Below are positions 6,706-57,861 of a stretch of 64,000 bases of DNA, in pieces. This DNA is from a virus (taxonomy: Duplodnaviria > Heunggongvirae > Uroviricota > Caudoviricetes). A program made the position numbers and the translations under genes. Location: IMG/VR virus record IMGVR_UViG_3300011008_000020. One strand, 5' to 3'. The notes beneath the pieces were generated by a model that saw only the letters and a program-made list of their open reading frames with translations, was not told the origin of the DNA and made no database searches. The number at the start of each line of letters is the position of its first letter. The stretch's first letter is position 1.

Positions 6706-8025
6706 TCATTTCTTGTCCTTGATGATGTCCTTCGCCAGCCTACGCATCTTGGCGGTGATGCAGCGATGCTCGCTCCATCCCGTGAAGTTGCCGTTGGCGT
6801 CGTACAGCGCCCGGTTGTAATGAGCGCCGCCGTTGCCGTAGGGGTAGGCCTTCGGCTGGCCGTGGTCGCTGTTGTCAAGCCGCATGATGACCTTGCCCTC
6901 GTCGTCGTAGTAGTACCGGGTGACGGAGCCGTCCGCGCCCGTCTGCTCCACCACAGCGTTCGCCTTGTCGGTCAGGCCGGGCGTCTGCGTCACCTTGCTG
7001 GTGGGCTTGAAGACGCCGCCGTTGCCGTTCGGCAGCAGGGTGTTGATGGGCTTGCGGTAGGTCTCGTTGCCGCTTCGGGCGCGGTTCTGCTCGTCCAGTT
7101 CTTCGGCCCATTTGCGATCATCGTCCGCGACGGCCTCCGCTTGGAGACGCTTGCGCTCGGCCAGCGAAAGGCCGAGGACTTCCTCGGAGACGACCGGGCT
7201 TGTGATGCAGTGGCAGTTGATTCGCTCGCCGGGCGGCAGGTTGGTGTCGCGTGGGTACATGGGCTTGTAGCTGCCGCCGTCCGCGCCTCGCAGGTCGAAG
7301 GGTTCCTCCTTCGGGACGACCTCGCCGTCCATGTCCACATGGTTCGGGCGGGGCTTGTTCCTGCGGCTTCCAGTGTGCCGCCATTCCTTGCCCTCGACGG
7401 ACGGGGATTGCATCATGGATTCCTGATTGGCGACGGAGTGGGCCGTCAGCATTTCGGTGAGCGCCGTCTGGCGTGCCCTTGCATAGCTGGTGCGGATGCC
7501 GTCGTCCATCAGTTCCCGCGTCACGTCCGCGACGCTCTTGCCCTTGCGCATGGCGTCCTCAAGGATGTTCTGGATTCCGTCGTGGGAGGTCAGCTTCATA
7601 ATCTGGCCGAGCTGCGGCGACCACTGGGAAATCCAATCGACGGTGCGCTGGCGCAGCGCCGTCACCACGAGGCCCTTGTCCACGGTCTTGATGTACTTGG
7701 TCGCAAGGCGGGGGATGACGGCGGAGAGGCCATTCTGAACGATGTCCTGAATGTCGTCGGCAAGGGCCGACGCTTCGCGGTACACGCCCCACGTGTTCTC
7801 GAAGAACTCGTCCACGCTGTCAGCCTGCTCAATCTGCTCGGCGACGATCTCCGTGTCCATGTGCATCGCGTCCGCGAGCTGCTCCTCAAGGTCTTCCGCG
7901 TCGCTGACGGTCTCCTTGGGTTCGACATATCCGGCGTCGTCCAGCAGGTCGGCCATGTCCTCGTCGTCCTTGGCGATGTAGGCGTCGATGGCCTTGATCA
8001 GCGCCTCGCAGGTTTCACACCTCAT
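6706..8025 (-). CDS. MuF-like minor head / head morphogenesis protein with ~150 aa C-terminal extension
   Basis: 439 aa. MuF/SPP1 gp7-like core with the RINCHCI (NCRC-type) motif. 4-bp ATGA overlap with portal gene. Extra C-terminal domain RYYYDDEGKVI...GNGGAHYNRALYD. Confidence 0.65.
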   Translation of the reverse strand: MRCETCEALIKAIDAYIAKDDEDMADLLDDAGYVEPKETVSDAEDLEEQLADAMHMDTEIVAEQIEQADSVDEFFENTWGVYREASALADDIQDIVQNGLSAVIPRLATKYIKTVDKGLVVTALRQRTVDWISQWSPQLGQIMKLTSHDGIQNILEDAMRKGKSVADVTRELMDDGIRTSYARARQTALTEMLTAHSVANQESMMQSPSVEGKEWRHTGSRRNKPRPNHVDMDGEVVPKEEPFDLRGADGGSYKPMYPRDTNLPPGERINCHCITSPVVSEEVLGLSLAERKRLQAEAVADDDRKWAEELDEQNRARSGNETYRKPINTLLPNGNGGVFKPTSKVTQTPGLTDKANAVVEQTGADGSVTRYYYDDEGKVIMRLDNSDHGQPKAYPYGNGGAHYNRALYDANGNFTGWSEHRCITAKMRRLAKDIIKDKK

Positions 8026-12540: not shown

Positions 12541-13914
12541 TTATTTCGCCTCGCCGTCTTGGAACATGTTGAGGACTTCCTCGGACAGTTCGTAGCGTTC
12601 CATGTTGGACATCGCCTTCTTGGCGTCGCCCTTGAGGAACACAAGGACGTGCTGGTGGCACGTGACGACTTTCCTACCGCCGTCAAACTGCCGGGCCGCA
12701 CGCAGGGCGGCGGTCGCCACCGCGTTCAGCAGCACCATGTTGTTGTACCAGTGAAGCCCGGCGTCCTCGAACGCCTTGATGGTGTCCCCGACGAAGTTGC
12801 GGTAGTTGCCCTCCTTGTCGCGTACCTCGCCGACGACGATGGCGGCGAAGGCGTTGGGCTTGAGCATGTCCACGGAGCGGCGGATAATCTCGCGGTAGGT
12901 ACGCACGAAGTTGGCGTAGTCCATGTTGGAGATGTCACGCGGGTCGTCGGAATACTTTTCGAGGTCGGCGTAGGGCGGACAGGTCATCAGCATGTCGAAG
13001 CCGCGCTCCTTGATGATCTTGTCGATCTCGGCGCTGTCGCCCACCGTCCACACCGGCGCGTCCATCGCCTCGCCATAGAAGTTCCGCTGGCCGTCCAGCA
13101 GCTTCCAGTTTTCCTCGTTGGCGTCGATCTGCTCCTGACGCAGGTCGTTTCCGAAGTAGCGCCTGCCGAGCATGGCGGTGACGATGCCGCGCACGCTGCC
13201 GCCTGCGAACGGGTCGATCACCTTGCCGCCCTTGGGCGAGAACCATGCGACGAGGATTTCCGCCAGCACTGGGTCGAAGATGCTCGTGCCGGTGAGCGTG
13301 GTGTTCTTAGTGGAGTTCTTGGCGAGCGCGTTCAGGCCGTTGCCGAGCAGACCTTCCTCGCGGCCTTCGCCGGATTTCAGGATGGTGTGCCACGTGGCCT
13401 TGCTGGATTGCCATTTTCCGTTGCGTGCGTCCAGCACAGAGAAGGGCGGGTAGATGTAGCGCTCATAGAGGTCTTCGGCGTTCTTGTGGGCTTCGTTGAA
13501 TTTCAGTTCCTCGTCCTCGCCGTTCAGAGCCTCGTCGATCTCGTCGAGGAAGTCCGTGTCGAAGTCGAAGTCTCCGAAGTCGAGGTCGGCCATCTCCTGC
13601 GCCAGCTTCTCAAAATCCCAAGAGGCCAGCTCGTTCGTCTTGTTGTCCGCGATGCGGTATTCGCGGTTCTCCTTCTCGGACAGCTCGCTCACCAGAACCG
13701 GCACCGTCTCAAGGCCGAGTTCCTTCGCGGCCTCGTACCGCGTGTGGCCTACCACGATCACGCCGTCCTTGTCCACGACAATCGGCTGCTTGAATCCGTA
13801 CTTGCGGATGCTGGTCGCAACGTCGCGGATGGCGCTCTGGTTGTGGCGCGGGTTGTTGGGGTAGGGCGTGATGGTGTCGATGGCCCTCATTTCGATCTTC
13901 GGATTCTGGCTCAC
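12541..13914 (-). CDS. ParB-like nuclease domain fused to DNA N4/N6 methyltransferase
   Basis: N-terminal ParB-N motif (VVGHTRYEAAKELG). Motif I DPFAGGSVRG and motif IV TCPPY. Confidence 0.8.
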   Translation of the reverse strand: MSQNPKIEMRAIDTITPYPNNPRHNQSAIRDVATSIRKYGFKQPIVVDKDGVIVVGHTRYEAAKELGLETVPVLVSELSEKENREYRIADNKTNELASWDFEKLAQEMADLDFGDFDFDTDFLDEIDEALNGEDEELKFNEAHKNAEDLYERYIYPPFSVLDARNGKWQSSKATWHTILKSGEGREEGLLGNGLNALAKNSTKNTTLTGTSIFDPVLAEILVAWFSPKGGKVIDPFAGGSVRGIVTAMLGRRYFGNDLRQEQIDANEENWKLLDGQRNFYGEAMDAPVWTVGDSAEIDKIIKERGFDMLMTCPPYADLEKYSDDPRDISNMDYANFVRTYREIIRRSVDMLKPNAFAAIVVGEVRDKEGNYRNFVGDTIKAFEDAGLHWYNNMVLLNAVATAALRAARQFDGGRKVVTCHQHVLVFLKGDAKKAMSNMERYELSEEVLNMFQDGEAK

Positions 13915-17963: not shown

Positions 17964-18482
17964 TCACATCCCTTCGAGGAACAATATTCGACTTCCAGTG
18001 AACGGAACCCTGCCTATGATCTCGGCCTCGCTGCACTTGATGTACTTCCTGCCGTACCGCTCCTTCATTTCCCGCCAGACTTCCCACGGGATGACGCAAA
18101 AGCTGTCGAGGGAGAAGCTGACGAGGATGAAGCACTTGGCTCCGAGTTTGAAGTGCTGGTCGAATCGCTTGGCCTGCTGTTCCGTGACGGCGCTCTGCTC
18201 GATCTTCCCGGCGTCGGTGAACTTCGATTCAAAGATGACCGCCTGACCTCCGGCGAGCGTTCCCTTGAAATCCGGCTGGGCCTTCTTCTCGAACACGCAG
18301 ATGAAGTGCGCCCCGTCGTTCAGCTTCCGCACGACGCGCATGGGTTCCGGCGTCTTCTCGATCTGGGCCTTGCCTTCCTCCTCATACCAGCGGCAGCTCG
18401 TCTCGATGATCTGCTCAAGGAGCCGTCCGCGCTCCTTGTTCATGCGACCTGTGACCTGATGCCTGTAACGGTCTCCCGGCAT
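17964..18482 (-). CDS. RecU-like Holliday junction resolvase
   Basis: DFKGTLAGGQAVIFESKF...ILVSF pattern resembles the RecU family. Confidence 0.55.
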   Translation of the reverse strand: MPGDRYRHQVTGRMNKERGRLLEQIIETSCRWYEEEGKAQIEKTPEPMRVVRKLNDGAHFICVFEKKAQPDFKGTLAGGQAVIFESKFTDAGKIEQSAVTEQQAKRFDQHFKLGAKCFILVSFSLDSFCVIPWEVWREMKERYGRKYIKCSEAEIIGRVPFTGSRILFLEGM

Positions 18483-19776
18483 ATCGCTCCCAAAGTCCTT
18501 TCTTCCGAATCCAGTCGATCTTGCCGCGCACCGCCTGAGTGGAGCGCTTCATCGTCTTGGCACAGTAATCGTGGCCGTAACCCGCCTCGATCATCTGCAC
18601 GAGGTTGTGCATGTCGTCCTCGCTCCACTTCACTGTCGCGCTCTTGAGCGGACGAGGAAGGGCGAGGTCATAAATCCGCCTACGGATGCTGCTGGATGTC
18701 CTTTGGAAGGCGTGTTGCAAGTCCTCGTGGGTGTAGCACCCGGCCTCGCACATGGCGGTGAGCAGCGCGTCCTCCTGCACCGTCCACCGGCACTTCTTGG
18801 GCGTGGACATGAGCCTGTTCCGCTGGTCGATCTTCCGCTTCTCCTTGCCCCATGCCGGTTCCATGCCGAGCGCGTTCTCCTCGAAGCGAGAGAAGTCAAG
18901 GATGTCTTGGTTCCTCTCGGCCCACGTCCAGAACTCCTCGATGTCCACCTGTTTCCACATGCACCGTTGCACTCTGGTTTTGTGGACAGGAAGGCCACGT
19001 TCTTCCCATCGACGCATTGAGTAGGTGAGGCTCCCGCTATCGTCGAAACCGACGACTATCCGAGCGACTTGCAGGAGAGATACAAGTTCGCTGCCGTTTC
19101 GGTATGGGCCGAGCTTCAATCGCATTACACGTGTCTTGATCGCGCTTTCGGTTCTACCGAGAGCTTTCGCTATCCTTGGGATGCCGCCATAGCAGCCCCA
19201 TAGTTCGCGCAGTTGGTTTTCATCGTCCGGCGTCCAGTTATTGCTGTAGCTGCCCTTGTGGCACTGCTTGATGATCTTGCTGACAGCGCCTTGGGTGACG
19301 CCGAATTGCTGTGCAATATTTTTCTGAGAGCAGCCTTCGGCGTACAGGTCATAGACCTCGCGGCGCTGCTCGTTCGTCAGCTTGGCGCGGCCATTCTTCT
19401 CGCCAATGGTTGCGGTGTTTGCCAAAATCTTATCCTCCCAGTTTTCGTGCGGCGTCCCGTATGCCAGATTGCAGGGCCGGTTGTCCCGGCTGTCTCCGTT
19501 CAGGTGACGCACGTGTAGGTGGCTGCGGTTCTTCGGCTTCCCGTGGAAGCCCTCGCAGATCAGCGCGTGGACGTTCTGTGTGGTCATGCTTCCGTCCCGG
19601 CGCATCACGTGGACTGTGGCGTAGTCGCCGCAGGTGTATTGCCGGACGGGCTGCAGCGTCACATATCGAACGCCGTCCACGATCTCGCTGTCGATCACGC
19701 TGTAGATGTTCCCGTCACTCCCGGCGAACAGTCCGGCGTAATCGTACAACTCCGTGTACTCGATTGCTCCGCTCAT
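18415..19776 (-). CDS. HNH homing endonuclease with multiple HTH domains
   Basis: N-terminal HNH motif (HVRHLNGDSRDNRPCNLAYGT); repeated HTH-like segments. Confidence 0.75.
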   Translation of the reverse strand: MSGAIEYTELYDYAGLFAGSDGNIYSVIDSEIVDGVRYVTLQPVRQYTCGDYATVHVMRRDGSMTTQNVHALICEGFHGKPKNRSHLHVRHLNGDSRDNRPCNLAYGTPHENWEDKILANTATIGEKNGRAKLTNEQRREVYDLYAEGCSQKNIAQQFGVTQGAVSKIIKQCHKGSYSNNWTPDDENQLRELWGCYGGIPRIAKALGRTESAIKTRVMRLKLGPYRNGSELVSLLQVARIVVGFDDSGSLTYSMRRWEERGLPVHKTRVQRCMWKQVDIEEFWTWAERNQDILDFSRFEENALGMEPAWGKEKRKIDQRNRLMSTPKKCRWTVQEDALLTAMCEAGCYTHEDLQHAFQRTSSSIRRRIYDLALPRPLKSATVKWSEDDMHNLVQMIEAGYGHDYCAKTMKRSTQAVRGKIDWIRKKGLWERYAGRPLQASGHRSHEQGARTAP

Positions 19777-36193: not shown

Positions 36194-36552
36194 TCACTGT
36201 CCAGTGTTCATCTGCGTAGGCAAGGACGCAGCTTTGCAGTAGATGTCGTAGTCCTCATATTCGACCAGCACCGTGTCCCACCGCCTATTCTTACGGCACA
36301 GGTCAGTGCTCATTTTGACAGGGGTTGGATTGATGATCTCGAACTCAGGCTCATATCCGCCGAGCGTGAAGAAATCGTCTTTTGCGTACCTTTCCGCTCG
36401 TTCGAGGTATTCTGTATAGCCGCCAAACCTGCGTTTTTCATCGTCCGCACTCGGACGTTCGCTACCCCACAGGACGCAAGGCTTTCCAAACTTCCATCCG
36501 GCTTTGGTGTGCTTTATGCTGATCGCTACATACTTGCGTTCAGGATTCACGG
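36194..36552 (-). CDS. hypothetical protein (GTG start)
   Basis: AAGGAGG 6 nt upstream of GTG; VNPERKYVAISIKH. Confidence 0.45.
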
Positions 36553-36690
36553 TCTGCCTCCTTCGGCATGTATGCCTCGAAAATCGCCTTGCCGAGAACC
36601 ACCATACCGGCGAATCCACCGACGATCATAATGTTTCCAATGGCCTGTGTGTACACGCTCATGGCTTTGTAGATTTCCGTGATGCTCATG
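36541..36690 (-). CDS. small membrane protein (49 aa; absent from ORF track)
   Basis: RBS GGGAGG then MSITEIYKAMSVYTQAIGNIMIVGGFAGMVVLG. Confidence 0.4.
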
Positions 36691-36701: not shown

Positions 36702-37715
36702 TCAAAACTGGAATGTGATCTGCCCCTCGATACTGGCCTTCGGCTTCTTCGCGGCCTTCCGGGGCGTTCTCTGAATGGTGTCATTCTTAACTGGTTGTTT
36801 TGACACTGTTGGTGTCGCTTCGGGCAAAAGGAAAGAAGCCTGTGCCAGTTCAGCGATTCCCGGCTCGATCTTCGGTGTCTCCGGCTCCGGGGTCTGTGCT
36901 GCTGCGGGTTCTTCCTTCGCAGGCTTGGTGTCGCCGAAAACGTTCATTATGTAGCGGAACCGCTGCCGGGCGATCTCGATTTCCCGGCGCTCATGCCACG
37001 TCTGCTCGAAGAACATCGGCGTGTACCAGCATCGCTCGGAGTTCTCGCCGAAAAGTACGTGGCCGGTCATGGGGGTGTAGAGTGAATCGCCGATCACGAC
37101 GTAGCCCGCGCAGCCGAGAAGGGATAGCTGGATGTAGCACATCAGGGCGGTGGTGCTGTCGATCTCCTGCGCGGCGAACATGATCTGGTATGGATAGTTG
37201 ATGCCATACTCGACGCTCGCCTCCGCCGCAGCGATCAGGGTCGCGCCCGCGCCGCAGGCACAGTCCATGCAAGAGAACCACCCATTCCGGTCGATTGCCG
37301 CCTGCAACTTGTCCTTGTCGCTGTCGATGGTAATCCGTGCCATCATCTGGCAGATGTTGTATGGCGTGAAGAACTGGCCTCCGAGGTTGTTTCCAAGGTC
37401 GAGATTCATAAACATGTCGCCGAGGAAATCCCCGAAAGAGCCACGCTCAGTCTTATCGACCACGTTCTGGTGAATGATTGCGAGCAACGCGGAGAATTTC
37501 TCGATCTCTGCCGTGTCGTATTTCTCCACGATGGACATGTAGGTTTTCTCCCTGCTCTCGCGGAAGCGGTCATCCACGCAGTTCGAGATGGCGATGGCGA
37601 TGCACCAGACCATATCCTTCCAGACTTCCCAGATGTTGTACTTCCCGGTGAGGGAGTTTATGATCTTGATGAAATCGCGCTGAAACTCGTCCTTGCCGGT
37701 ATATGTCCGGGCCAT
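36702..37715 (-). CDS. HsdM/N6-MTase-like protein lacking recognizable NPP(F/Y) catalytic motif
   Basis: Motif X GQFFTP and motif I MDCACGAGATL are present. The motif IV position reads GDSLYTPM. Low-complexity P/E/K-rich C-terminus. Confidence 0.55.
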   Translation of the reverse strand: MARTYTGKDEFQRDFIKIINSLTGKYNIWEVWKDMVWCIAIAISNCVDDRFRESREKTYMSIVEKYDTAEIEKFSALLAIIHQNVVDKTERGSFGDFLGDMFMNLDLGNNLGGQFFTPYNICQMMARITIDSDKDKLQAAIDRNGWFSCMDCACGAGATLIAAAEASVEYGINYPYQIMFAAQEIDSTTALMCYIQLSLLGCAGYVVIGDSLYTPMTGHVLFGENSERCWYTPMFFEQTWHERREIEIARQRFRYIMNVFGDTKPAKEEPAAAQTPEPETPKIEPGIAELAQASFLLPEATPTVSKQPVKNDTIQRTPRKAAKKPKASIEGQITFQF

Positions 37716-45497: not shown

Positions 45498-46273
45498 GGA
45501 AAATCCTGTCGGAAGTCATCGCCCATGAGTTCCCTGATGCTGTCCTTCATAAAAATCGGCCTGCCGGAGTATTCGCACTCCATGAGGATTGCGTCAATCC
45601 ACTCCTTCTTCGGCTGCACCTTGTTCTTGCGGCCTCCCGTCTCTGCACCGACGATCACCCAGTCGGCAGGGACGTGGGAGCAGAAGCCCGGCTGCATCGG
45701 CGCGAGCATCGGCTCGATGGACACGAACAGGTTCTTGACGAGACACTCGTCCGCGTGGTGGAAGCGCCAGAGCATCTTCTGGCTGGTGGCCGTGTAGCCG
45801 TACCAATGTTCATGCGGCAGCAGGCCTTTCGCTGCCAGCTCGTTGTAGCGGTTCGGGTTCTTGGTGAGGAACAGGTATCTGTGCTGCTTCGCCTTCGCAC
45901 AGGCGTCGAACACTTCCTGAATCCACTCGTCGGGCACCCACTCGCCAAAGACGTCCGACATCGAGCCGACGAATATGGTCTTCGGGTTCTTCCATTTCTG
46001 CGGGATGTCCAGACGGTAGCGGTGGAAGGTCGGCGCAAAGCCGAAGGGGTAGGGCGTCGGCACGATCTGGCCGTTCTTCTGCTCTCGGCACTGAATCTCT
46101 TCCAGCACATACAGACCGTTTTCCTCGTGCCACGTGCCCGGCTTATGATCGGGAAGGAATCCCTTAAACCTGCGGGCCATGCCGCGAGCATAGCAGTAGG
46201 CGCAGCCGTGGTTACAGCCGGTGATCGGGTTGAATGAGGCGTCGGCCCAGTCGATCTTGGTGGTCTGTCCCAT
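45479..46273 (-). CDS. phage Gp37/Gp68 (DUF5131) family protein with CX3CX2C radical-SAM-type motif
   Basis: WADASFNPITGCNHGCAYCYA. Confidence 0.65.
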   Translation of the reverse strand: MGQTTKIDWADASFNPITGCNHGCAYCYARGMARRFKGFLPDHKPGTWHEENGLYVLEEIQCREQKNGQIVPTPYPFGFAPTFHRYRLDIPQKWKNPKTIFVGSMSDVFGEWVPDEWIQEVFDACAKAKQHRYLFLTKNPNRYNELAAKGLLPHEHWYGYTATSQKMLWRFHHADECLVKNLFVSIEPMLAPMQPGFCSHVPADWVIVGAETGGRKNKVQPKKEWIDAILMECEYSGRPIFMKDSIRELMGDDFRQDFPWEVKA

Positions 46274-46832
46274 TATGCCTGCTCCTTTCTGATCGCGTTC
46301 TCCGGCGTCAGGCCGTCCAACTGCATCCGGCTCCCTGTCGCTTCCTCTTGCCCACAGTATTTCCCCGTGTAGGGCTTGGAGACGTCAACGGCGTCCATGT
46401 AGACGAGCTGGGTCACGGGGTAGCCGGGATAGAGGAGGATTGTGCAAGGGCTGTCGTTCTTGAGTTCCAGTGTGATGTGGCCGGGGAATCCGGGGTCAAC
46501 GAAGCCCGCGTTCTGCACCGTCAGACCGGCCCGACCAATGGAGGAGCGCCCCTGAACGAAAGCCGCCGCGTCAATCGGCACGATGATGGATTCAATGGTC
46601 GTCGCCAGCATGAACTCGCCGGGCATGATCGGGATGGTCTCGCCGTCCTTGACCTCAAAGCGGGTGTATTTCATTTCCTCGCCGAGCCGGACGATCTGGC
46701 TGGGAACCGGCTTGAGGAAGGTGTGGCCCAGCCGGAGGTTGATGCTGGCCGGATTGACGCTGCTGTCATTCGTCCCGGAGATCATACCGTTCTCAATGAG
46801 ACGCTTCAAACGCTTATCTCCCCAAATCATTT
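46273..46832 (-). CDS. dcd: dCTP deaminase (Dcd/dUTPase fold)
   Basis: MIWGDKRLKRLIENGMI...NPASINLRLGH...GRSSIGRAGL...ITLELKN parallels Dcd. Confidence 0.75.
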
Positions 46833-47083
46833 CTTTTCCCCTCTTTCTCGGCGTCAGCGATGCCCTCCTTGATGCCATCGCTGACCATTTTCCCACACAT
46901 GGATAATGGCCCACGCTGACATGCAACCTTGAGGATTCGCCGCTCATAGTGCCGGTTGTCTTCGCCCTTCTCACGCTGCACGCCGTATAGCTTGCCGATG
47001 GTGTTCAGCGTCATGCCGTGCATCGCGGACTTGAGCGTGTTGTAGGTGTGTCTCCGCGCAAGGCGCGTGATTATATCTGCCAT
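46814..47083 (-). CDS. hypothetical protein
   Basis: 89 aa ORF. Confidence 0.45.
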   Translation of the reverse strand: MADIITRLARRHTYNTLKSAMHGMTLNTIGKLYGVQREKGEDNRHYERRILKVACQRGPLSMCGKMVSDGIKEGIADAEKEGKRNDLGR

Positions 47084-49101: not shown

Positions 49102-52100
49102 TTATTCCATCACGGCGTGACTTCCGGCGTCGTCCTTCGTCACGGTGATGTTCTGGGGGAACATGGCCTTCATCGCCTCGTCGTGGGTGATTGCCATGAT
49201 GCACATATCGGTGTAGCGCCGCCGGATGGCTTCAAGGGCCTCGACGTAGGCCCGCACGCCGTCACTGTCAAGGAATGGCGGCTCGTCAAGGAACAGGAAG
49301 CCGAGCTGCACGCCGAGCTTGTTCTTCATCACCTCTGCAAGGGCAAGGATGACGCTCAATGCCGCCTTGACGCGCTCGCCGCCAGAGCGGGACAGGTAGG
49401 GCAAGCGCCCGGTGTCCGCGTCGTTGATGACGACGTCCAGCGTGGTGACCTCCTTCTTGTTGTTGCTCTTGAGCACCTTCTCTGTCACCAGCTCCACGCT
49501 CATGCGGCCCTGCGACATCTGGCCGAGGATATTGGAGGCCGTGGCCTCGAAGATCGGGATGATCGACCTCGTGATGTTGTGCGGAATGCCGTTGGAACCG
49601 AAGGCTTGCTTGAGTATCTCGTACTGCGCCGCCGTATAGGCTTTGTCGTCGATCTGCTTGGCGACTTCGGCCACGTGAGCCTGCAAGACTTTCGTTCGCT
49701 CGATCTCCGCCTCGATGGAGGCCTTGACGCCGACCACGCGGTCTCGCTCGGCCTGTTCGCTGGCGATCTGCTTCTTGATCTCGATGATCTTGGCCGTGAT
49801 AGCGTCCTTCTCGGCGTCCGTCGCGGCTTCACCGGCGAGATTGGCTTCGAGTTCGCTGATGTGCTTCTCGTTGAACTCAATCGCCCGCTGGTACTCGTCA
49901 ATGCGTTCCTGCGCGGCGTCCCTGCGGTCTTTCGCGCCAACAAGCTGCTGTTCCTTCTCGATGCACGGCTTGTACTGCGTGATCGCGTTGACGGCGGCGG
50001 TGTATGCTTCATAGACTTCGGCATAACCGGCGATGTCGGCGTTCACCTTTTCCAGCTCGCTTTTCTTGGTCTCGATCTCGTAGGTGAGGGTGTTGTCGCG
50101 CTCTGTGACTTCCTTGCGACTGGCTTCGAGCCGGGTCAGTTCTTCTTCGTAGGTGGTGATCTGTGCAAGCATCACGGACGCAGAAGCCAGTTCCTTGAGC
50201 CGGGCACGCATCTGGGCGATGGCGGCGGCATCCACGGTGTTGATGGCGTCTCGCCGGGCGATGGCCGCATTCACGTCGTCCGTCAGCTTCGCAAACTCGA
50301 CGCGAGCCGCTTCGGTGGCTTCCGCGTGCTTCTTTTCCAGCTCCGGCAGGGCGTCACGTGCCGCCACGGCGTCCGCGAGGAAGCGGCAGGTGGCGGTCGC
50401 GGCAATCGGGCAACCGCTGTCATCCAGCATGGCGACGCGCTTCTTCTTGCTTTCGATCTCGGTCATGCGCTCACGGAAGTCTGCCCGCGCACTGTTTCGC
50501 AAATCGGAGACCTTGGCTTGGAGTTCGAGGACGGCGCTGTTTGCTGCGTTCCACTTGGCCCTGTTCTCCTCGTCTGCCTCAAGTGCCGCCGTGATGCTGT
50601 CGTGCTCCCGCTGCTGGCGCTCGTACTCTGCGCGGCGAGCGATGGACGCACGAAGCTGTTCCATCCGGGTGTCAAGCTCCTGCGCCCTCTTGGAGTTCTG
50701 GGCGCGGCTGTCCTCACCGGTGCGGATTGCGTTTTCGATGCTGGCACGCTGGGTCTGCATGACGGTGAGGGTGTTCACCTTGTCCTGCAAGGCGTCCCGC
50801 TCAGCCTGCGCCTTGCGGCAGCGTTCCGCGCCGTCAAGGATGTTGCTCTGGTCGTCGAGGATGGAGGCATAGAGCGCCTTGTCCATCTCGGCGCTGAGTT
50901 TCTGCGCCTGCGCACGCCCAATAGCTTCGCGCATTTCGCCGATCTGGCGGCGATACATCGCATAGACCTCCGAGGACGTGTTCAGCTTTGCAAGCTCCCC
51001 GTTCAGGTGTTCGAGTTCGGCGTTCAGGAGTTTGAGTTCGGTGTCACACCCGTCAATGCCAATGACGCAACCGGCGCGGCGATTGCCGAGGACATCGAGG
51101 TCTCCGCACTGCTGCGAGAGTTCATCCTTCTTGGCCTGCAGCGTCCGCACCTCCCGGTTGGCCTCCGTGGCCTTTTCGACGGCCTCGTCGGCCATCTGGT
51201 CGTAGATACCAAGACCGAGGATGTCGGAAAGAATCTGCATGCGCTCCTCTTTGCCCGCTTGCAGGAAAAGCCCATACTGGTCTTGCATGATCAGTGCGCA
51301 GGCGCGAAGGGTCTGGCCGTCGATGCCGATCACGCGCACGATGGCATCCTGCGTGTCGCGCATCTTCTCGCACGAGCGGTCAACCCACTCGCCGTCAACC
51401 TTCTCGGACAGGTTCAAGGTCGCTTTGCCGCTCTTGACGCGGGTGCGTACCACGCGCCACAGCTTGTCGCCGACGCGGAAGGTGAAGTGAATCGCGCCGG
51501 AGCGTGCGCTCTCGTCGTTGCAAATCCAGCCGGTCAGGTCGCCCTCTCGCGGTTCCTCGTAGAGCGCGTCGAAGATCGCGTCCATGAACAGGCTGCTCTT
51601 GCCGACGCCGTTCTGGCCGTTGATGGTCGCAAAGCGCACATCATCGAAGGAGAATGTTTCGTCGCGGTAGTTGCGGTAGTTGGTGACGCTGATCTCGACC
51701 GGCACGAGGACGCCGCTCGCCTTGTCGGCGTGGCCTTCCGCGAGCACGCGGTCAATGATGGAGCGGCCCTTCTCAAGGACGTTTGCCACGGTCTCGTCGT
51801 CGATGACGGTGGCGTTGGTGGCGAGGTACTCCCGCAGGTTCTCCACGGGGTCGTTCTCGGCGGTCAGCTCGGTGCGGTTCACCGTCACCGTGATGTTGCG
51901 CGGGGTGATCTCCTGCACCCAGAACGCTCCCATGTCCATGATCGCCCGTTCGAGCTGCGGACGGTTGAGGGCCTTCTGGTTCTCGTCGGTGCAATCGTAG
52001 ATGACGCGGACGATGGCGTCCTTCACGTCCTGCTGCGGCAGGATGCCGGTCAGGTTGAAGTCGTGGATGCCGTCGTCATCCATGCGGATGGTCTTGAACT

Positions 52101-52953
52101 TGCGCGGGCTGTCAAGCTCCACAAAGTGGTGGTTGCTTACACTCCACCCTTTGTTCCAATCGCCATCCAGCGTATGGACATAGAAGCCGCGCTCCTGTCC
52201 CTCGTCGTTGAAGTTGAGCCGGTTGATCGCGCCGCTGTAGAAGGCCCTCTCGCCGAGGGGCTGCGGCCTGTGGATGTGGCCGAAGCAGCACAGGTCATAG
52301 TTTGCCGTCATCAGCGTCTTGTGGGAAATGATCGGCTCGAACTGGCTGAACATCATGGTCTGGCCGCTCTCGGTGTTCGCACCCTCGACGGTGTAGTGCC
52401 CGACCAGCACAGAAGGATTGCCACGCTGGCACTGGGCCCTCATGCCGACGATCATCTGCTCAAGCGCTTCGGTGAACGCCTGCGTCTCCTGCTCACGGTC
52501 TGCGCCGGGGTTCTGGCTGCGCCAGTAGCCCTTGTCGAAGCCGGGCAAGGCGCAGAGGCTGACGGCGGTGACGTTGGTGTCGATGGAGTAGTGGCCCGGC
52601 TCGGTGATGATCTTGACGTTGCCATTGTTCTCGAAATGGGTCTTGAGCATCTGGTAGTGCTGCTCGCCGTCGTGGTTGGGTGTGCCGCGCACGATCACGA
52701 CCGGCGCGATGTCGGCGAGGCGCTCGATGCGCTGGATGGCGTCGTTGACCTCGGAGATTCCGCGCTCGCTCCACGTCTTGGCGGCGTGGAACAGGTCACC
52801 GGCGTGGATGATCAGATCGGGATTGATCGTCGCCACCTTGTCGATGAACTCGTCGAAGCAGCGCAAGGTGTCCTCGGCGCGGGCGTTCTTCCCGGCCACC
52901 ACCGGCCCCGGAAAGGGGCCGATGTGGGTGTCAGCAAAATGAACGATCTTCAT
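49102..52953 (-). CDS. fused Mre11/SbcD-like phosphoesterase plus Rad50/SbcC-like SMC ATPase (1283 aa)
   Basis: N-terminal MKIVHFADTHIG...DLIIHAGDLFH (calcineurin-like). Walker A GQNGVGKSS, long coiled coil, signature LSRSGGE, Walker B LFLDEPP. Confidence 0.75.
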   Translation of the reverse strand: MKIVHFADTHIGPFPGPVVAGKNARAEDTLRCFDEFIDKVATINPDLIIHAGDLFHAAKTWSERGISEVNDAIQRIERLADIAPVVIVRGTPNHDGEQHYQMLKTHFENNGNVKIITEPGHYSIDTNVTAVSLCALPGFDKGYWRSQNPGADREQETQAFTEALEQMIVGMRAQCQRGNPSVLVGHYTVEGANTESGQTMMFSQFEPIISHKTLMTANYDLCCFGHIHRPQPLGERAFYSGAINRLNFNDEGQERGFYVHTLDGDWNKGWSVSNHHFVELDSPRKFKTIRMDDDGIHDFNLTGILPQQDVKDAIVRVIYDCTDENQKALNRPQLERAIMDMGAFWVQEITPRNITVTVNRTELTAENDPVENLREYLATNATVIDDETVANVLEKGRSIIDRVLAEGHADKASGVLVPVEISVTNYRNYRDETFSFDDVRFATINGQNGVGKSSLFMDAIFDALYEEPREGDLTGWICNDESARSGAIHFTFRVGDKLWRVVRTRVKSGKATLNLSEKVDGEWVDRSCEKMRDTQDAIVRVIGIDGQTLRACALIMQDQYGLFLQAGKEERMQILSDILGLGIYDQMADEAVEKATEANREVRTLQAKKDELSQQCGDLDVLGNRRAGCVIGIDGCDTELKLLNAELEHLNGELAKLNTSSEVYAMYRRQIGEMREAIGRAQAQKLSAEMDKALYASILDDQSNILDGAERCRKAQAERDALQDKVNTLTVMQTQRASIENAIRTGEDSRAQNSKRAQELDTRMEQLRASIARRAEYERQQREHDSITAALEADEENRAKWNAANSAVLELQAKVSDLRNSARADFRERMTEIESKKKRVAMLDDSGCPIAATATCRFLADAVAARDALPELEKKHAEATEAARVEFAKLTDDVNAAIARRDAINTVDAAAIAQMRARLKELASASVMLAQITTYEEELTRLEASRKEVTERDNTLTYEIETKKSELEKVNADIAGYAEVYEAYTAAVNAITQYKPCIEKEQQLVGAKDRRDAAQERIDEYQRAIEFNEKHISELEANLAGEAATDAEKDAITAKIIEIKKQIASEQAERDRVVGVKASIEAEIERTKVLQAHVAEVAKQIDDKAYTAAQYEILKQAFGSNGIPHNITRSIIPIFEATASNILGQMSQGRMSVELVTEKVLKSNNKKEVTTLDVVINDADTGRLPYLSRSGGERVKAALSVILALAEVMKNKLGVQLGFLFLDEPPFLDSDGVRAYVEALEAIRRRYTDMCIMAITHDEAMKAMFPQNITVTKDDAGSHAVME

Positions 52954-55609: not shown

Positions 55610-57592
55610 TTATTCGGTGAGCATGAGCTGGGTCTGCACGTCAATCAGGTAATCGTCACGATTGGCGACGATCTTCTCGTAGGCCTCCCGGCCTTGGAAC
55701 TCGTCCACGACCCTGCGGCTTTCATCGTCCATCTCGTCATAGCTGACGTTGCCGTAGGACGGCGGCAACCATGCCTTATTGCGCCCGACGTAGATGTTCA
55801 AGCGATCAACAATCTTGCGGTCATGGAAGACGATGTGGCAGGTTCCCTTCTTGTAGAACGTGACGGTGAAGTATTTGCAGACGATGTTCTTTGTCTGTCC
55901 GCTGGTCGCCGCAGCACCGAGGACGCTGGTCAGGTCGCACTCGCCAGTCTCGCCCCTGTCCAGATAGTTGAATGCCTTTTCCAGATCGTCGAGGATGGCG
56001 AAGCAGGCGCGGGTGTCCAGCCCTTCCAGTATGTCGCGGTAGTTGCCGCGCTTGTCCGGCTTATACTTCCTTGCGAAGCACCCCCATGTCGGGATGATGC
56101 AGCGCATGTTGACATAATGGGCCTTGTTGGTTTTCCAGCCGTCGAAATAGTGGATGTTGCCATTCTTGAGGTTTTCGTCGAACGTGTGCTTGTCGGAGAG
56201 CATCTCGAAGCAGTGCAGGATTGCGCCCTCCACGCAGACTGTGAGCTGGCCCATGATGCGATTGAGCACCTGCTGGATGTTGAACCGGGAGAACTCGTAG
56301 TCCTTCATTTCGGTGATCAGCTCGTCATAGGCGCTTTTCATGGTCGCGGTCAGCTTGTTGCGGAGCATCGGGAGGGCAAACAGGTCATGCCAGAACTTCG
56401 AGCGCACCCGGCTCAGATACTTGTTCACGTCCTCCTCGTCACAGCGGCTTCCACAGTCGGAATTACCAATCGACAGCGTGATGATCGGGCTGTCAGAGCC
56501 GCTGCCGCAGATGTGGGGAGCCACGCCGTTGTAGGCACGCATGAGTGCGATTCCCGTGTCACAGGTCAGCTCATACTCCCGTAGCAGACGCTCGATGTTG
56601 TCAGACGGCGCGATGGCGTTCTTCACATCCGTCTCGAACTTCTGGGCCTGTGCCTTGCGCAGGTTCTCATAGATTCCATCATCGACGAAAGAGCGCGGGA
56701 TGGTCACGTTGATCAGCGCCACGTCCACCTTTGCCCGGCGCTGCGCTTTGGCGAAGGCGTTCTCCATGAACTTGATGCTCGCACCGGCTTCGGTCAGTTT
56801 CCGCAGAAGCAGCTTCCGGGTGTTGGTGTAGGGGTTGCGGATGGTCTCGGCGTTCAGAATGCACGCGATCTGCCCGCCGTGCTCGCACAGTTCCAGCGCG
56901 TGGAGCAGGTGCATGTCGCCGTCAGAGAAGGGCGGGTTCATAATATAGAGGTCGTAGCGCCTGCGGGTGTTGAACGTCAGGAAGTCGTCGTGGACGACGC
57001 GGTAGCCCTTCGACATGAGGATGGCTTGGAGGTTCGGGTCGATCTCGACGCAATCCACGTTCAGCTTGCCGTTCTCCGCGTAGTCGTACCTCGTGATGCG
57101 GCGATAGAAGCCGCGCTTGGCAGACCTCGCGTGTTCGATCAGGTCGCCCTTACCGGCGCTCGGCTCCAACACAGTCTCGACGCCACGCCACGTCACACCG
57201 GCCAGCAGCTTGCCCGCAACGTTCGACGGCGTTGGGTAGAAGTCGGCGTCGATGGACGGCAGGTAGGCCACGGGCGCTTGCCGGGCCTGCCGGGCGGTGT
57301 GCGCTTTGTAGTAGGCCTCCGCATGCTTCGTCAGCGCGACCTTGGCAGCGTAGAGGGTGTTGGTCGGCTTCTCGGTGTAGTGGATGTAGGACAGTCGCCT
57401 CCCGCCGTCGTAGCGCTGGTCGTCCTCATACACCTGTATGCTGTAATGAGAGCGACTGTAGGAGGGCGAATCGTTGTAGTCGATGCGGCCCACGCGCACG
57501 CCATGGAGGAAGCACGCCCAGCGCTGATTTGGTATCGGGTGGTCAGAGGGTTCCAGCATCGAAAGGTCGTAGAGCTGGATGTGGTCGGTCAT
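55610..57592 (-). CDS. N6-adenine DNA methyltransferase (NPPF) with large C-terminal domain
   Basis: Motif I LEPSAGKGDL; motif IV DLYIMNPPF; RBS CAGGAGG then MTDHIQLYD. Confidence 0.8.
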   Translation of the reverse strand: MTDHIQLYDLSMLEPSDHPIPNQRWACFLHGVRVGRIDYNDSPSYSRSHYSIQVYEDDQRYDGGRRLSYIHYTEKPTNTLYAAKVALTKHAEAYYKAHTARQARQAPVAYLPSIDADFYPTPSNVAGKLLAGVTWRGVETVLEPSAGKGDLIEHARSAKRGFYRRITRYDYAENGKLNVDCVEIDPNLQAILMSKGYRVVHDDFLTFNTRRRYDLYIMNPPFSDGDMHLLHALELCEHGGQIACILNAETIRNPYTNTRKLLLRKLTEAGASIKFMENAFAKAQRRAKVDVALINVTIPRSFVDDGIYENLRKAQAQKFETDVKNAIAPSDNIERLLREYELTCDTGIALMRAYNGVAPHICGSGSDSPIITLSIGNSDCGSRCDEEDVNKYLSRVRSKFWHDLFALPMLRNKLTATMKSAYDELITEMKDYEFSRFNIQQVLNRIMGQLTVCVEGAILHCFEMLSDKHTFDENLKNGNIHYFDGWKTNKAHYVNMRCIIPTWGCFARKYKPDKRGNYRDILEGLDTRACFAILDDLEKAFNYLDRGETGECDLTSVLGAAATSGQTKNIVCKYFTVTFYKKGTCHIVFHDRKIVDRLNIYVGRNKAWLPPSYGNVSYDEMDDESRRVVDEFQGREAYEKIVANRDDYLIDVQTQLMLTE

Positions 57593-57612
57593 GCGTTCAT
57601 CGCCTCCTGTTT

Positions 57613-57861
57613 CTATTTGTTGACGGCCTGCCAGAGCAGGTCTTCCAGATTGTTCATGGCGCACTTGGCCTTGATCAGTTCCAAGTCCGGGATGCTGTCC
57701 AGCATGTCCTTCGTTTTCTTGACCATGTTATAGACCTCGCCAACGGTCGGCCTCGTGTGCTGGACGGCGGGTGCCGGGCGCTGCGGCTGCTTCTTCTTCG
57801 CCGCAGGCTTGCGCTTGCGCGACTTCTTCTTGAATATTCCGAACATCCTCTCGTTCTCCAT
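57613..57861 (-). CDS. basic hypothetical protein
   Basis: 82 aa; K/R-rich. Confidence 0.45.
   Translation of the reverse strand: MENERMFGIFKKKSRKRKPAAKKKQPQRPAPAVQHTRPTVGEVYNMVKKTKDMLDSIPDLELIKAKCAMNNLEDLLWQAVNK

Follow-up and report, generated by a model that had tools for sequence, protein, structure and literature searches.

We describe a gene of a Caudoviricetes virus (Duplodnaviria; Heunggongvirae; Uroviricota) whose product is predicted to be half of a DNA methylase, joined by a disordered linker to a short terminal peptide that resembles those with which bacterial proteins bind the β sliding clamp. The gene lies in IMG/VR record IMGVR_UViG_3300011008_000020, a stretch of 64,000 nucleotides that was analysed as a whole and that we refer to as the window. 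According to the list of open reading frames (ORFs) and the sequence itself, it runs from ATG to stop over positions 36702-37715 of the minus strand and encodes 337 amino acids. The core consists of the N-terminal helical subdomain and the cofactor half (β1-β4) of a γ-class, HsdM-type adenine methylase, and the protein belongs to a large family specific to mobile genetic elements, not to the class of decayed genes. We hold this description of the anatomy with high confidence. As to function, the protein probably serves establishment or anti-restriction in a way that is linked to replication and has gone unrecognised, and it is probably not an ordinary methylase. The explanation that we favour overall, at about even confidence, is a clamp-tethered half-methylase that binds S-adenosylmethionine (SAM) and would act on newly made DNA of the element, probably protectively. 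Both the fold and the linear motif are already known; the architecture and the likely role are new.

Predicted anatomy and conservation of the core

A first-pass annotation made from the letters of the window had called the product an HsdM-like protein, which is borne out by a match to PF02384 (N6_Mtase; E 1.2e-8, 35.1 bits against a cutoff of 20.4). The profile hidden Markov model (HMM) alignment that it had suggested as a check gives this significant match, but only over the first half of the profile, at positions 24-152 of 311 (129 positions). The hsdM equivalog model TIGR00497 of NCBIfam scores 27.8 bits against a cutoff of 242.75, and Pfam, NCBIfam and PADLOC each see only the first part of their type I methylase models. 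HsdM is the best match of the protein by both sequence and structure. A single-sequence phmmer search against PDB returned only fibrinogen matches, which we judged spurious, and a profile search was needed. With a profile built from 82 homologues, the family's GNTLTEP aligns to GNTLTEP of EcoR124 HsdM (283-289), and hhalign sets residues 75-112 of the focal protein against EcoKI HsdM 100-150 and its G209-D-S-L against G247-N-T-L (247-250).

All four cofactor motifs are present in γ order, namely X (GQFFTP, 113-118), I (D151xAxGxG157), II (E184) and III (G209-D-S-L), so that the earlier identification of GQFFTP and MDCACGAGATL (150-160) as motifs X and I stands. The acid of motif II, here E184, binds the ribose hydroxyls of the cofactor. 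We infer from these motifs that the core binds SAM. The assignment of motif IV to GDSLYTPM (209-216) was wrong, as this segment aligns to motif III of HsdM. The position of motif IV is instead occupied by T232-P-M-F, directly after predicted strand β4 (229-231) and 23 residues from the motif III glycine, compared with 19 residues to the NPPF of EcoKI. The protein has YTPM at both 213 and 231, the probable reason for the misplacement. The conclusion that the canonical NPP(F/Y) is absent was nonetheless right, although it was reached from the wrong position: [NDS]PP[FYW] is found nowhere in the protein.

In an AlphaFold2 model based on an alignment of 82 sequences, residues 10-260 have predicted local distance difference test (pLDDT) values above 90. 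The model is helical up to residue 144 (including helices 10-20, 28-47, 52-63, 68-90 and 97-104), continues with strands at 147-151, 178-184, 203-208 and 229-231, and passes through one long helix (238-262) into disorder. As modelled, the core is the four-stranded, SAM-binding half of a class I methylase fold. Strands β5-β7, motifs V-VIII and a target-recognition domain are absent from the focal protein, judged by the AlphaFold2 model and by the Pfam match, which ends at profile position 152. A homologue from an IncF plasmid, modelled separately with a different alignment, yields the same four-stranded core and long terminal helix, its first 40 residues being of low confidence. The N-terminal subdomain has conserved residues specific to the family (W32, D34, A40, N45, R55, Y59, Y66 and D96-F-L-G99). 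The coordinates of all features are collected in Table 1.

The family is large and uniform in length. More than 3,000 clusters at 90% identity match the focal protein, all of about 270-360 amino acids, and an exhaustive HMM search of 1.84 billion representatives returned 1,474 at E ≤ 1e-30 and 3,735 at E ≤ 1e-10, almost all of 228-340 amino acids; at 50% identity there are about 1,470 family clusters. Conservation was counted across 81 diverse representatives that are about 30% identical. The G, Q, F116, T and P of motif X are invariant, as is G155 of motif I, in which position 151 is always acidic and G157 is kept in 71. Likewise, position 184 of motif II is D or E, and position 210 of motif III is N or D, in every representative. 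At motif IV, position 232 is T in 69 of the 81 and N or D in none; P233 follows in 78, then a variable residue, then an aromatic residue at position 235 in 70. Judged from these counts, a complete cofactor site and a non-canonical loop at the catalytic position are under strict purifying selection. The hosts of the family span Clostridia, Enterobacteria, Acinetobacter, Pseudomonas, Vibrio and sphingomonads.

Table 1 Features of the half-methylase gene in the window, with residue numbers of the 337-residue protein
Feature	Position	Strand	Description
Whole ORF	36702..37715	-	337 amino acids plus stop; half-methylase core, then disordered linker, then C-terminal clamp-binding-like motif
N-terminal helical subdomain, residues 10-104	37404..37688	-	AlphaFold2 helices, pLDDT > 90; conservation in 81 members
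Motif X, G113-Q-F-F-T-P-Y119	37359..37379	-	Aligns to HsdM GEFFTP/GQYFTP; contacts the methionine moiety of the cofactor
Strand β1 and motif I, F147-SCMDCACGAGATL160	37236..37277	-	Glycine-rich SAM loop; β1 predicted at 147-151
Strand β2 and motif II, I178-MFAAQEID186	37158..37184	-	Aligns to HsdM GQEI; β2 predicted at 178-184
Strand β3 and motif III, A203-GYVVIGDSL212	37080..37109	-	Aligns to motif III of EcoR124 and EcoKI HsdM
Strand β4 and degenerate motif IV, C229-W-Y-T232-P-M-F-F236	37008..37031	-	T-P-M-F replaces (N/D)-P-P-(F/Y); β4 predicted at 229-231
Helix αD, residues 238-262	36930..37004	-	Last element of the core; conserved W240, R243 and R244; no strand afterwards
Disordered P/A/K/T/E-rich linker, residues 263-331	36723..36929	-	pLDDT 41-58; includes the basic patch RKAAKKPK
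C-terminal hexapeptide, Q332-I-T-F-Q-F337	36705..36722	-	Resembles the β-sliding-clamp-binding motif, Q-φ-x-φ-x-F; pLDDT < 50

A terminal peptide resembling clamp-binding motifs

The proline- and lysine-rich tail described at first pass is indeed there, the last 75 residues being rich in P, A, K, T and E (P 11, A 11, K 9). Among homologues the linker cannot be aligned in sequence or in length, and the extreme C-terminus is conserved. The tail peptide of the window reads KASIEGQITFQF, an equivalent among its relatives is, for example, ETKTGQLTLF, and the IncF plasmid peptide is MSQLSFADVFNM. The terminal QITFQF is in register with QLSLF and QMSLF (next clade) and with QLMFDF of homologues.

Three independent samples of the family agree on this terminus. 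Among the 120 closest clusters, 114 end in Q[LIVM]x[LFM]x?[FLI]. At IMG/VR loci the motif is terminal in 52 of 64 family proteins, mostly as GQL[TS][LF]F, and on bacterial contigs, with one genome per species, in 55 of 77 distinct proteins (QLTLF 34, QLSLF 6, QLSFF 4 and QLTFF 4). As a background, only 3 of 1,308 other ORFs of the same loci have such a terminus, and the focal ORF is the sole one among the 565 ORFs of the window. The consensus of known clamp motifs is QφxLF or QL[S/D]LF, or a hexapeptide QφxLxL, and validated examples are QLSLF in PolC, QLDLF in Pol Y1, QLSFF in Bacillus subtilis MutS and QVELEF at the C-terminus of Pol III α (bioRxiv 10.64898/2026.05.27.728225; PMC4549789). 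QLDLF is also found among the homologue termini, and three of these termini (QLSLF, QLDLF and QLSFF) are thus identical to validated clamp motifs.

A second branch of the family carries such a peptide at its other end. In enterobacterial plasmid homologues an N-terminal MSQLSF[AV][DS][VF]F is conserved in roughly 100 of 120 clusters. The linker after it is variable, has about 30 residues and is disordered by prediction, and the 277-residue plasmid proteins consist of core only at the C-terminus. The clamp motif of Hda lies at the N-terminus as well. It reads QLSLPL (bioRxiv 10.64898/2026.05.27.728225), which the QLSF-type peptide of the plasmid homologues recalls. That two branches bear a like peptide at opposite ends is the strongest argument for clamp docking being a selected property. 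From these comparisons, docking on the clamp appears likely for the family as a whole; for the variant in the window itself we regard it as rather more probable than improbable.

Genomic settings and competing explanations

A tblastn search with the core found 2,054 plasmid records, of which 1,466 are conjugative, with Klebsiella (691), Acinetobacter (259), Enterobacter (257) and Pseudomonas (147) leading a list of further genera. The plasmid homologues are all annotated 'N-6 DNA methylase' by the Prokaryotic Genome Annotation Pipeline (PGAP). In F-like plasmids of Klebsiella, Enterobacter, Salmonella and Serratia the gene is located in the leading region in four of the four examined, between psiA and the oriT/traM end and on the same strand as ssb, psiB and psiA; in one of them it adjoins a gene for an 'antirestriction protein'. 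Leading regions hold more than their share of anti-defence genes and orphan methylases (PMC11541004), and in pESBL a replication-associated methylase acts early in conjugation and protects the incoming DNA (PMC7736820). In phages the gene is found in the early, replication-side region at the end of the replication/recombination module, which in Faecalibacterium phage Taranis is closed by gp23, a protein ending in GQLTFF.

Across 32 dereplicated viral loci the recurrent neighbours are FtsK-γ-like, ParB_N+HTH_ParB, RecU or RuvC, DnaD/DnaC-like loader, Myb-type regulator and PcfJ-like genes. FtsK-γ-like genes occur in 9 of the 32 and ParB-like genes in 11, which reflects synteny within Taranis-like phages, and both are absent beside the window gene. 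We rejected a split methylase completed by a neighbour, given that no neighbour is conserved across lineages; a tblastn search of the window with the C-terminal half of EcoKI HsdM, a weak test, found nothing. No hsdS- or hsdR-like neighbour was seen in the window or in the related loci examined.

Some members are fused to a PcfK-like domain ending in GQ[LM]DLF, and one is fused to ParB_N. Stand-alone PcfK-like proteins (PF14058) encoded directly downstream have a K/E/P-rich linker followed by IQLSLF or IQLTLF (viral contigs L038:6874-7467 and L039:6885-7361, and P0253, P0257, P0302 and P0327), with a PcfJ-like gene after them. By their termini, the PcfK-like proteins may themselves be unrecognised sliding-clamp clients. 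In two unrelated elements, Dulem virus 37 (L004) and Pseudomonas plasmid pNY5530-NR1 (L088), the half-methylase gene adjoins one with a SprT-like metalloprotease domain, a domain type also present in the anti-restriction protein ArdC. In pNY5530-NR1 a PAPS-reductase-family gene and a gene for a C5 cytosine methylase come next, and the Dulem virus 37 region also encodes a Lar-type restriction-alleviation protein.

In the explanation that we favour, the tail would dock on the host's β sliding clamp where this stays behind on freshly replicated phage DNA, and the docking would concentrate the SAM-loaded core on nascent DNA or at the primer-template junction. There, before host restriction can act, the core would modify or shield the DNA, or the SAM-dependent restriction complexes that attack it. 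The host clamp is the presumed docking target because the phage has a replication initiator and a loader, and a polymerase or sliding clamp was not seen among its genes in the window. Protection from restriction is the most plausible role on account of the early or leading-region niche. As to how the core would work, we lean slightly towards methyl transfer on exposed bases by a non-canonical reaction over action without catalysis. An actual non-canonical DNA modification is nevertheless unlikely. In its boldest form, a new kind of minimal SAM-dependent enzyme consisting of the cofactor half and the T-P-x-aromatic loop would be delivered by the host clamp to bases exposed at the primer-template junction, be it of phage DNA under replication or of conjugative DNA on entry, and its sequence-nonspecific modification would blunt restriction; we give this form a similarly low chance.

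Several observations weigh against the favoured explanation. The terminal motif is missing from Dulem virus, from Vibrio phages and from plasmids of Acinetobacter and Pseudomonas, and among the top diverse representatives it is lacking in about 75%; because many members lack the peptide, clamp docking would be accessory to the core function. The copy in the window resembles the hexapeptide-type, weaker-binding variant, and on the B. subtilis clamp pentapeptides are stronger binders than hexapeptide motifs by a factor of at least 10 (bioRxiv 10.64898/2026.05.27.728225). Position 232 is never N or D and half of the fold is missing, both of which speak against canonical amino-methylation, and no DNA-binding or target-recognition domain is evident in the focal protein. 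Finally, the case for a protective or establishment role is one of guilt by association, and we hold that role only tentatively, at somewhat below even confidence. We know of no class I methylase that works with only four strands.

The first-pass annotation had instead proposed a soluble, catalytically dead HsdM mimic that would poison the host's type I enzymes as they assemble, or would sequester SAM. In favour of this, the closest relatives are type I HsdM models, NPPF is absent, the SAM-binding motifs are kept and the plasmid neighbourhoods are of the anti-defence kind. The mechanisms proposed fit the anatomy poorly, however. HsdM binds HsdS through its C-terminal region, and because the focal protein ends after αD, without an HsdS-binding region, it cannot simply replace HsdM in the M2S1 complex. 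Moreover, the family has a very broad host range, whereas the interfaces of type I subunits are family-specific, and a protein that binds one SAM molecule at a time cannot exhaust so abundant a metabolite. The model also leaves the clamp-type peptide on its flexible linker unexplained. Inert mimics usually lose the cofactor site, so that its invariance here argues against one, and the strong conservation of this site and of the T-P-x-aromatic loop means that 'catalytically dead' is not established. The genomic niche fits an anti-restriction or establishment role, but decoy and SAM sequestration are poorly supported as mechanisms, and we consider the mimic model improbable.

The tail invites another reading, in which it fills the client pocket of DnaN and thereby arrests or redirects host replication or repair, the core serving as bulk or as a regulator. 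This would account for the conservation of the terminal clamp motif, and there is precedent for mobile elements and phages that use or block the clamp, namely transposases (PMC4549789) and MuC of phage Mu (bioRxiv 10.1101/2025.01.04.631326). A peptide alone would suffice for such a competitor, however, and an invariant SAM site would be needless; conservation is much stronger and wider in the core than in the tail, which many members lack, and a conjugative plasmid gains nothing by arresting its new host. We therefore rate a clamp competitor as quite improbable. The database annotation could also simply be right, the protein being an ordinary orphan N6-adenine DNA methylase, alone or as half of a split enzyme, with a Pfam match above the gathering threshold, the PGAP name and a location typical of orphan methylases on its side. 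Against it stand the partial profile match and the low TIGR00497 score, a motif IV that lacks N or D in all 81 representatives, the missing β5-β7 in two independent models, and the lack of any partner, be it a neighbour conserved across lineages or, by the weak tblastn test, a window ORF like the C-terminal half of HsdM; this makes an ordinary methylase very improbable. The truncated domain and the non-canonical catalytic motif might suggest a decaying, functionless remnant, but a remnant would not be expected to form thousands of clusters of the same length with invariant motifs, a confidently predicted fold and a conserved terminal motif. That reading is already refuted by the conservation data, and we assign it practically no probability.

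Compared with HsdM of EcoKI and EcoR124I (PF02384/TIGR00497), the half-methylase has the helical N-terminal subdomain, the DxLG element, motifs X and I, the acid of motif II and motif III (G[ND][ST]L) in the same order and at the same spacing. It differs in stopping after αD, without β5-β7, motifs V-VIII or the HsdS-binding helices, in having T-P-x-aromatic in place of NPPF, in the absence of hsdS and hsdR, and in its clamp-type tail. DNMT1 is a complete, active C5 methylase that is recruited to PCNA by a PCNA-interacting protein (PIP) box. The logic proposed for the half-methylase is the same, with a short linear motif that tethers a SAM-dependent, DNA-directed module to a sliding clamp behind the fork, although there is no homology beyond the Rossmann fold, and the organisms and the clamps differ. 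If the minimal enzyme outlined above is real, the mobile elements of bacteria would have a counterpart of DNMT1-PCNA, and thousands of gut phages as well as epidemic IncF resistance plasmids of Klebsiella would carry it. The pseudo-methylases DNMT3L and METTL14 (EPPL) keep the whole fold and have lost cofactor binding. Their non-canonical catalytic motif is similar, but the half-methylase is their opposite in that its cofactor site is invariant and half of the fold is lost.

The clamp clients PolC, Pol Y1, MutS, Pol III α and Hda, and the IS and Tn3 transposases, have a like short terminal peptide (Q-φ-x-[LF]-F or Q-φ-x-φ-x-F) on a disordered segment, and the half-methylase family likewise keeps the peptide while the linker drifts. 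The likeness of the family to these clients is one of sequence, and the copy in the window is of the hexapeptide type. In the literature searched we found no precedent for a half-methylase cargo among clamp clients. M.EcoGIX and M.BceJIII share the leading-region niche of the plasmid homologues, are expressed early and protect incoming DNA, and their action is coupled to a replication protein, Pol I (PMC7736820), as that of the half-methylase putatively is to the clamp. They belong to an unrelated sequence family and are complete β-class enzymes, specific for single strands, with a catalytic DPPY and demonstrated N6-methyladenine (m6A) activity (PMC7736820). Membership of the M.EcoGIX family was rejected, the focal protein being of γ order and without DPPY. 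The anti-restriction proteins Ocr, ArdA, ArdB/KlcA, ArdC and T3 SAM lyase share the early or leading-region placement, and T3 SAM lyase also the SAM theme; no sequence or fold similarity of the focal protein to Ocr/ArdA, ArdB/KlcA, ArdC or T3 SAM lyase was detected.

We found no description of the truncated family or of its clamp motif in the literature searched. Databases label its members 'N-6 DNA methylase' or 'type I R-M methyltransferase subunit' (R-M, restriction-modification), and surveys count such genes as orphan methylases. Given that every member examined is without the catalytic N/D and without half of the fold, thousands of genes are probably mislabelled. The family occupies the first-expressed regions of gut phages and conjugative plasmids, among them the IncFII(K) plasmids with which carbapenem resistance spreads in Klebsiella. 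Should both the clamp tether and the protection be true, this would amount to a widespread, undescribed strategy of replication-coupled establishment or anti-restriction, and to a new class of clamp client.

The window phage and its other genes

The window is a phage or prophage with genes for a portal, a terminase and a Mu-F-like head protein; its replication genes encode a replication initiator, a DnaC-like loader and an SbcCD-like nuclease. A megablast search with 20 kb of the window against phage records gave no match, and the phage itself is on this ground undescribed. The nearest homologues of the focal gene come from prophage-like loci of gut Oscillospiraceae and other Clostridia. An identical protein exists in a public protein collection (P0001), and phrog_5696 matches the focal protein at E 1e-79, its function being given as unknown in PHROGs.

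Two further methyltransferases had been reported in the window, and both are there. The ORF at 12541-13914 (minus strand) is a fusion of ParB_N and N6_N4_Mtase, and that at 55610-57664 (minus strand) encodes a protein of 684 amino acids with IMNPPFS at residue 243 and a DUF4942 domain. Both are apparently complete. The ParB-methylase was considered as a partner of the focal protein and rejected, as it lies 23 kb away and is complete by itself.

Directly downstream of the focal gene, a hydrophobic ORF of 49 amino acids (36540-36689, minus strand) has counterparts at the same position in related contigs (49 amino acids in L092 and 59 in L093). The replication region includes a dCTP deaminase-like ORF (46273-46974, minus strand; phrog_1663), which could hint at altered nucleotide pools or modified bases. 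The single ORF of 1,283 amino acids at 49102-52953 (minus strand) combines a calcineurin-like phosphoesterase N-terminus (SbcD/Mre11-like) with an SMC/AAA_23 body (SbcC/Rad50-like) and appears to be a fused SbcCD-type nuclease. A protein of 453 amino acids encoded at 18415-19776 (minus strand) has HNH_3, sigma-70 region 4/HTH and Myb-like domains, and several other phages have a similar Myb/HTH protein beside the half-methylase (L024:6246-7547 is an example). At its C-terminal end, the Mu-F-like head morphogenesis protein, encoded at 6706-8025 (minus strand), has a weak RHS-repeat match.

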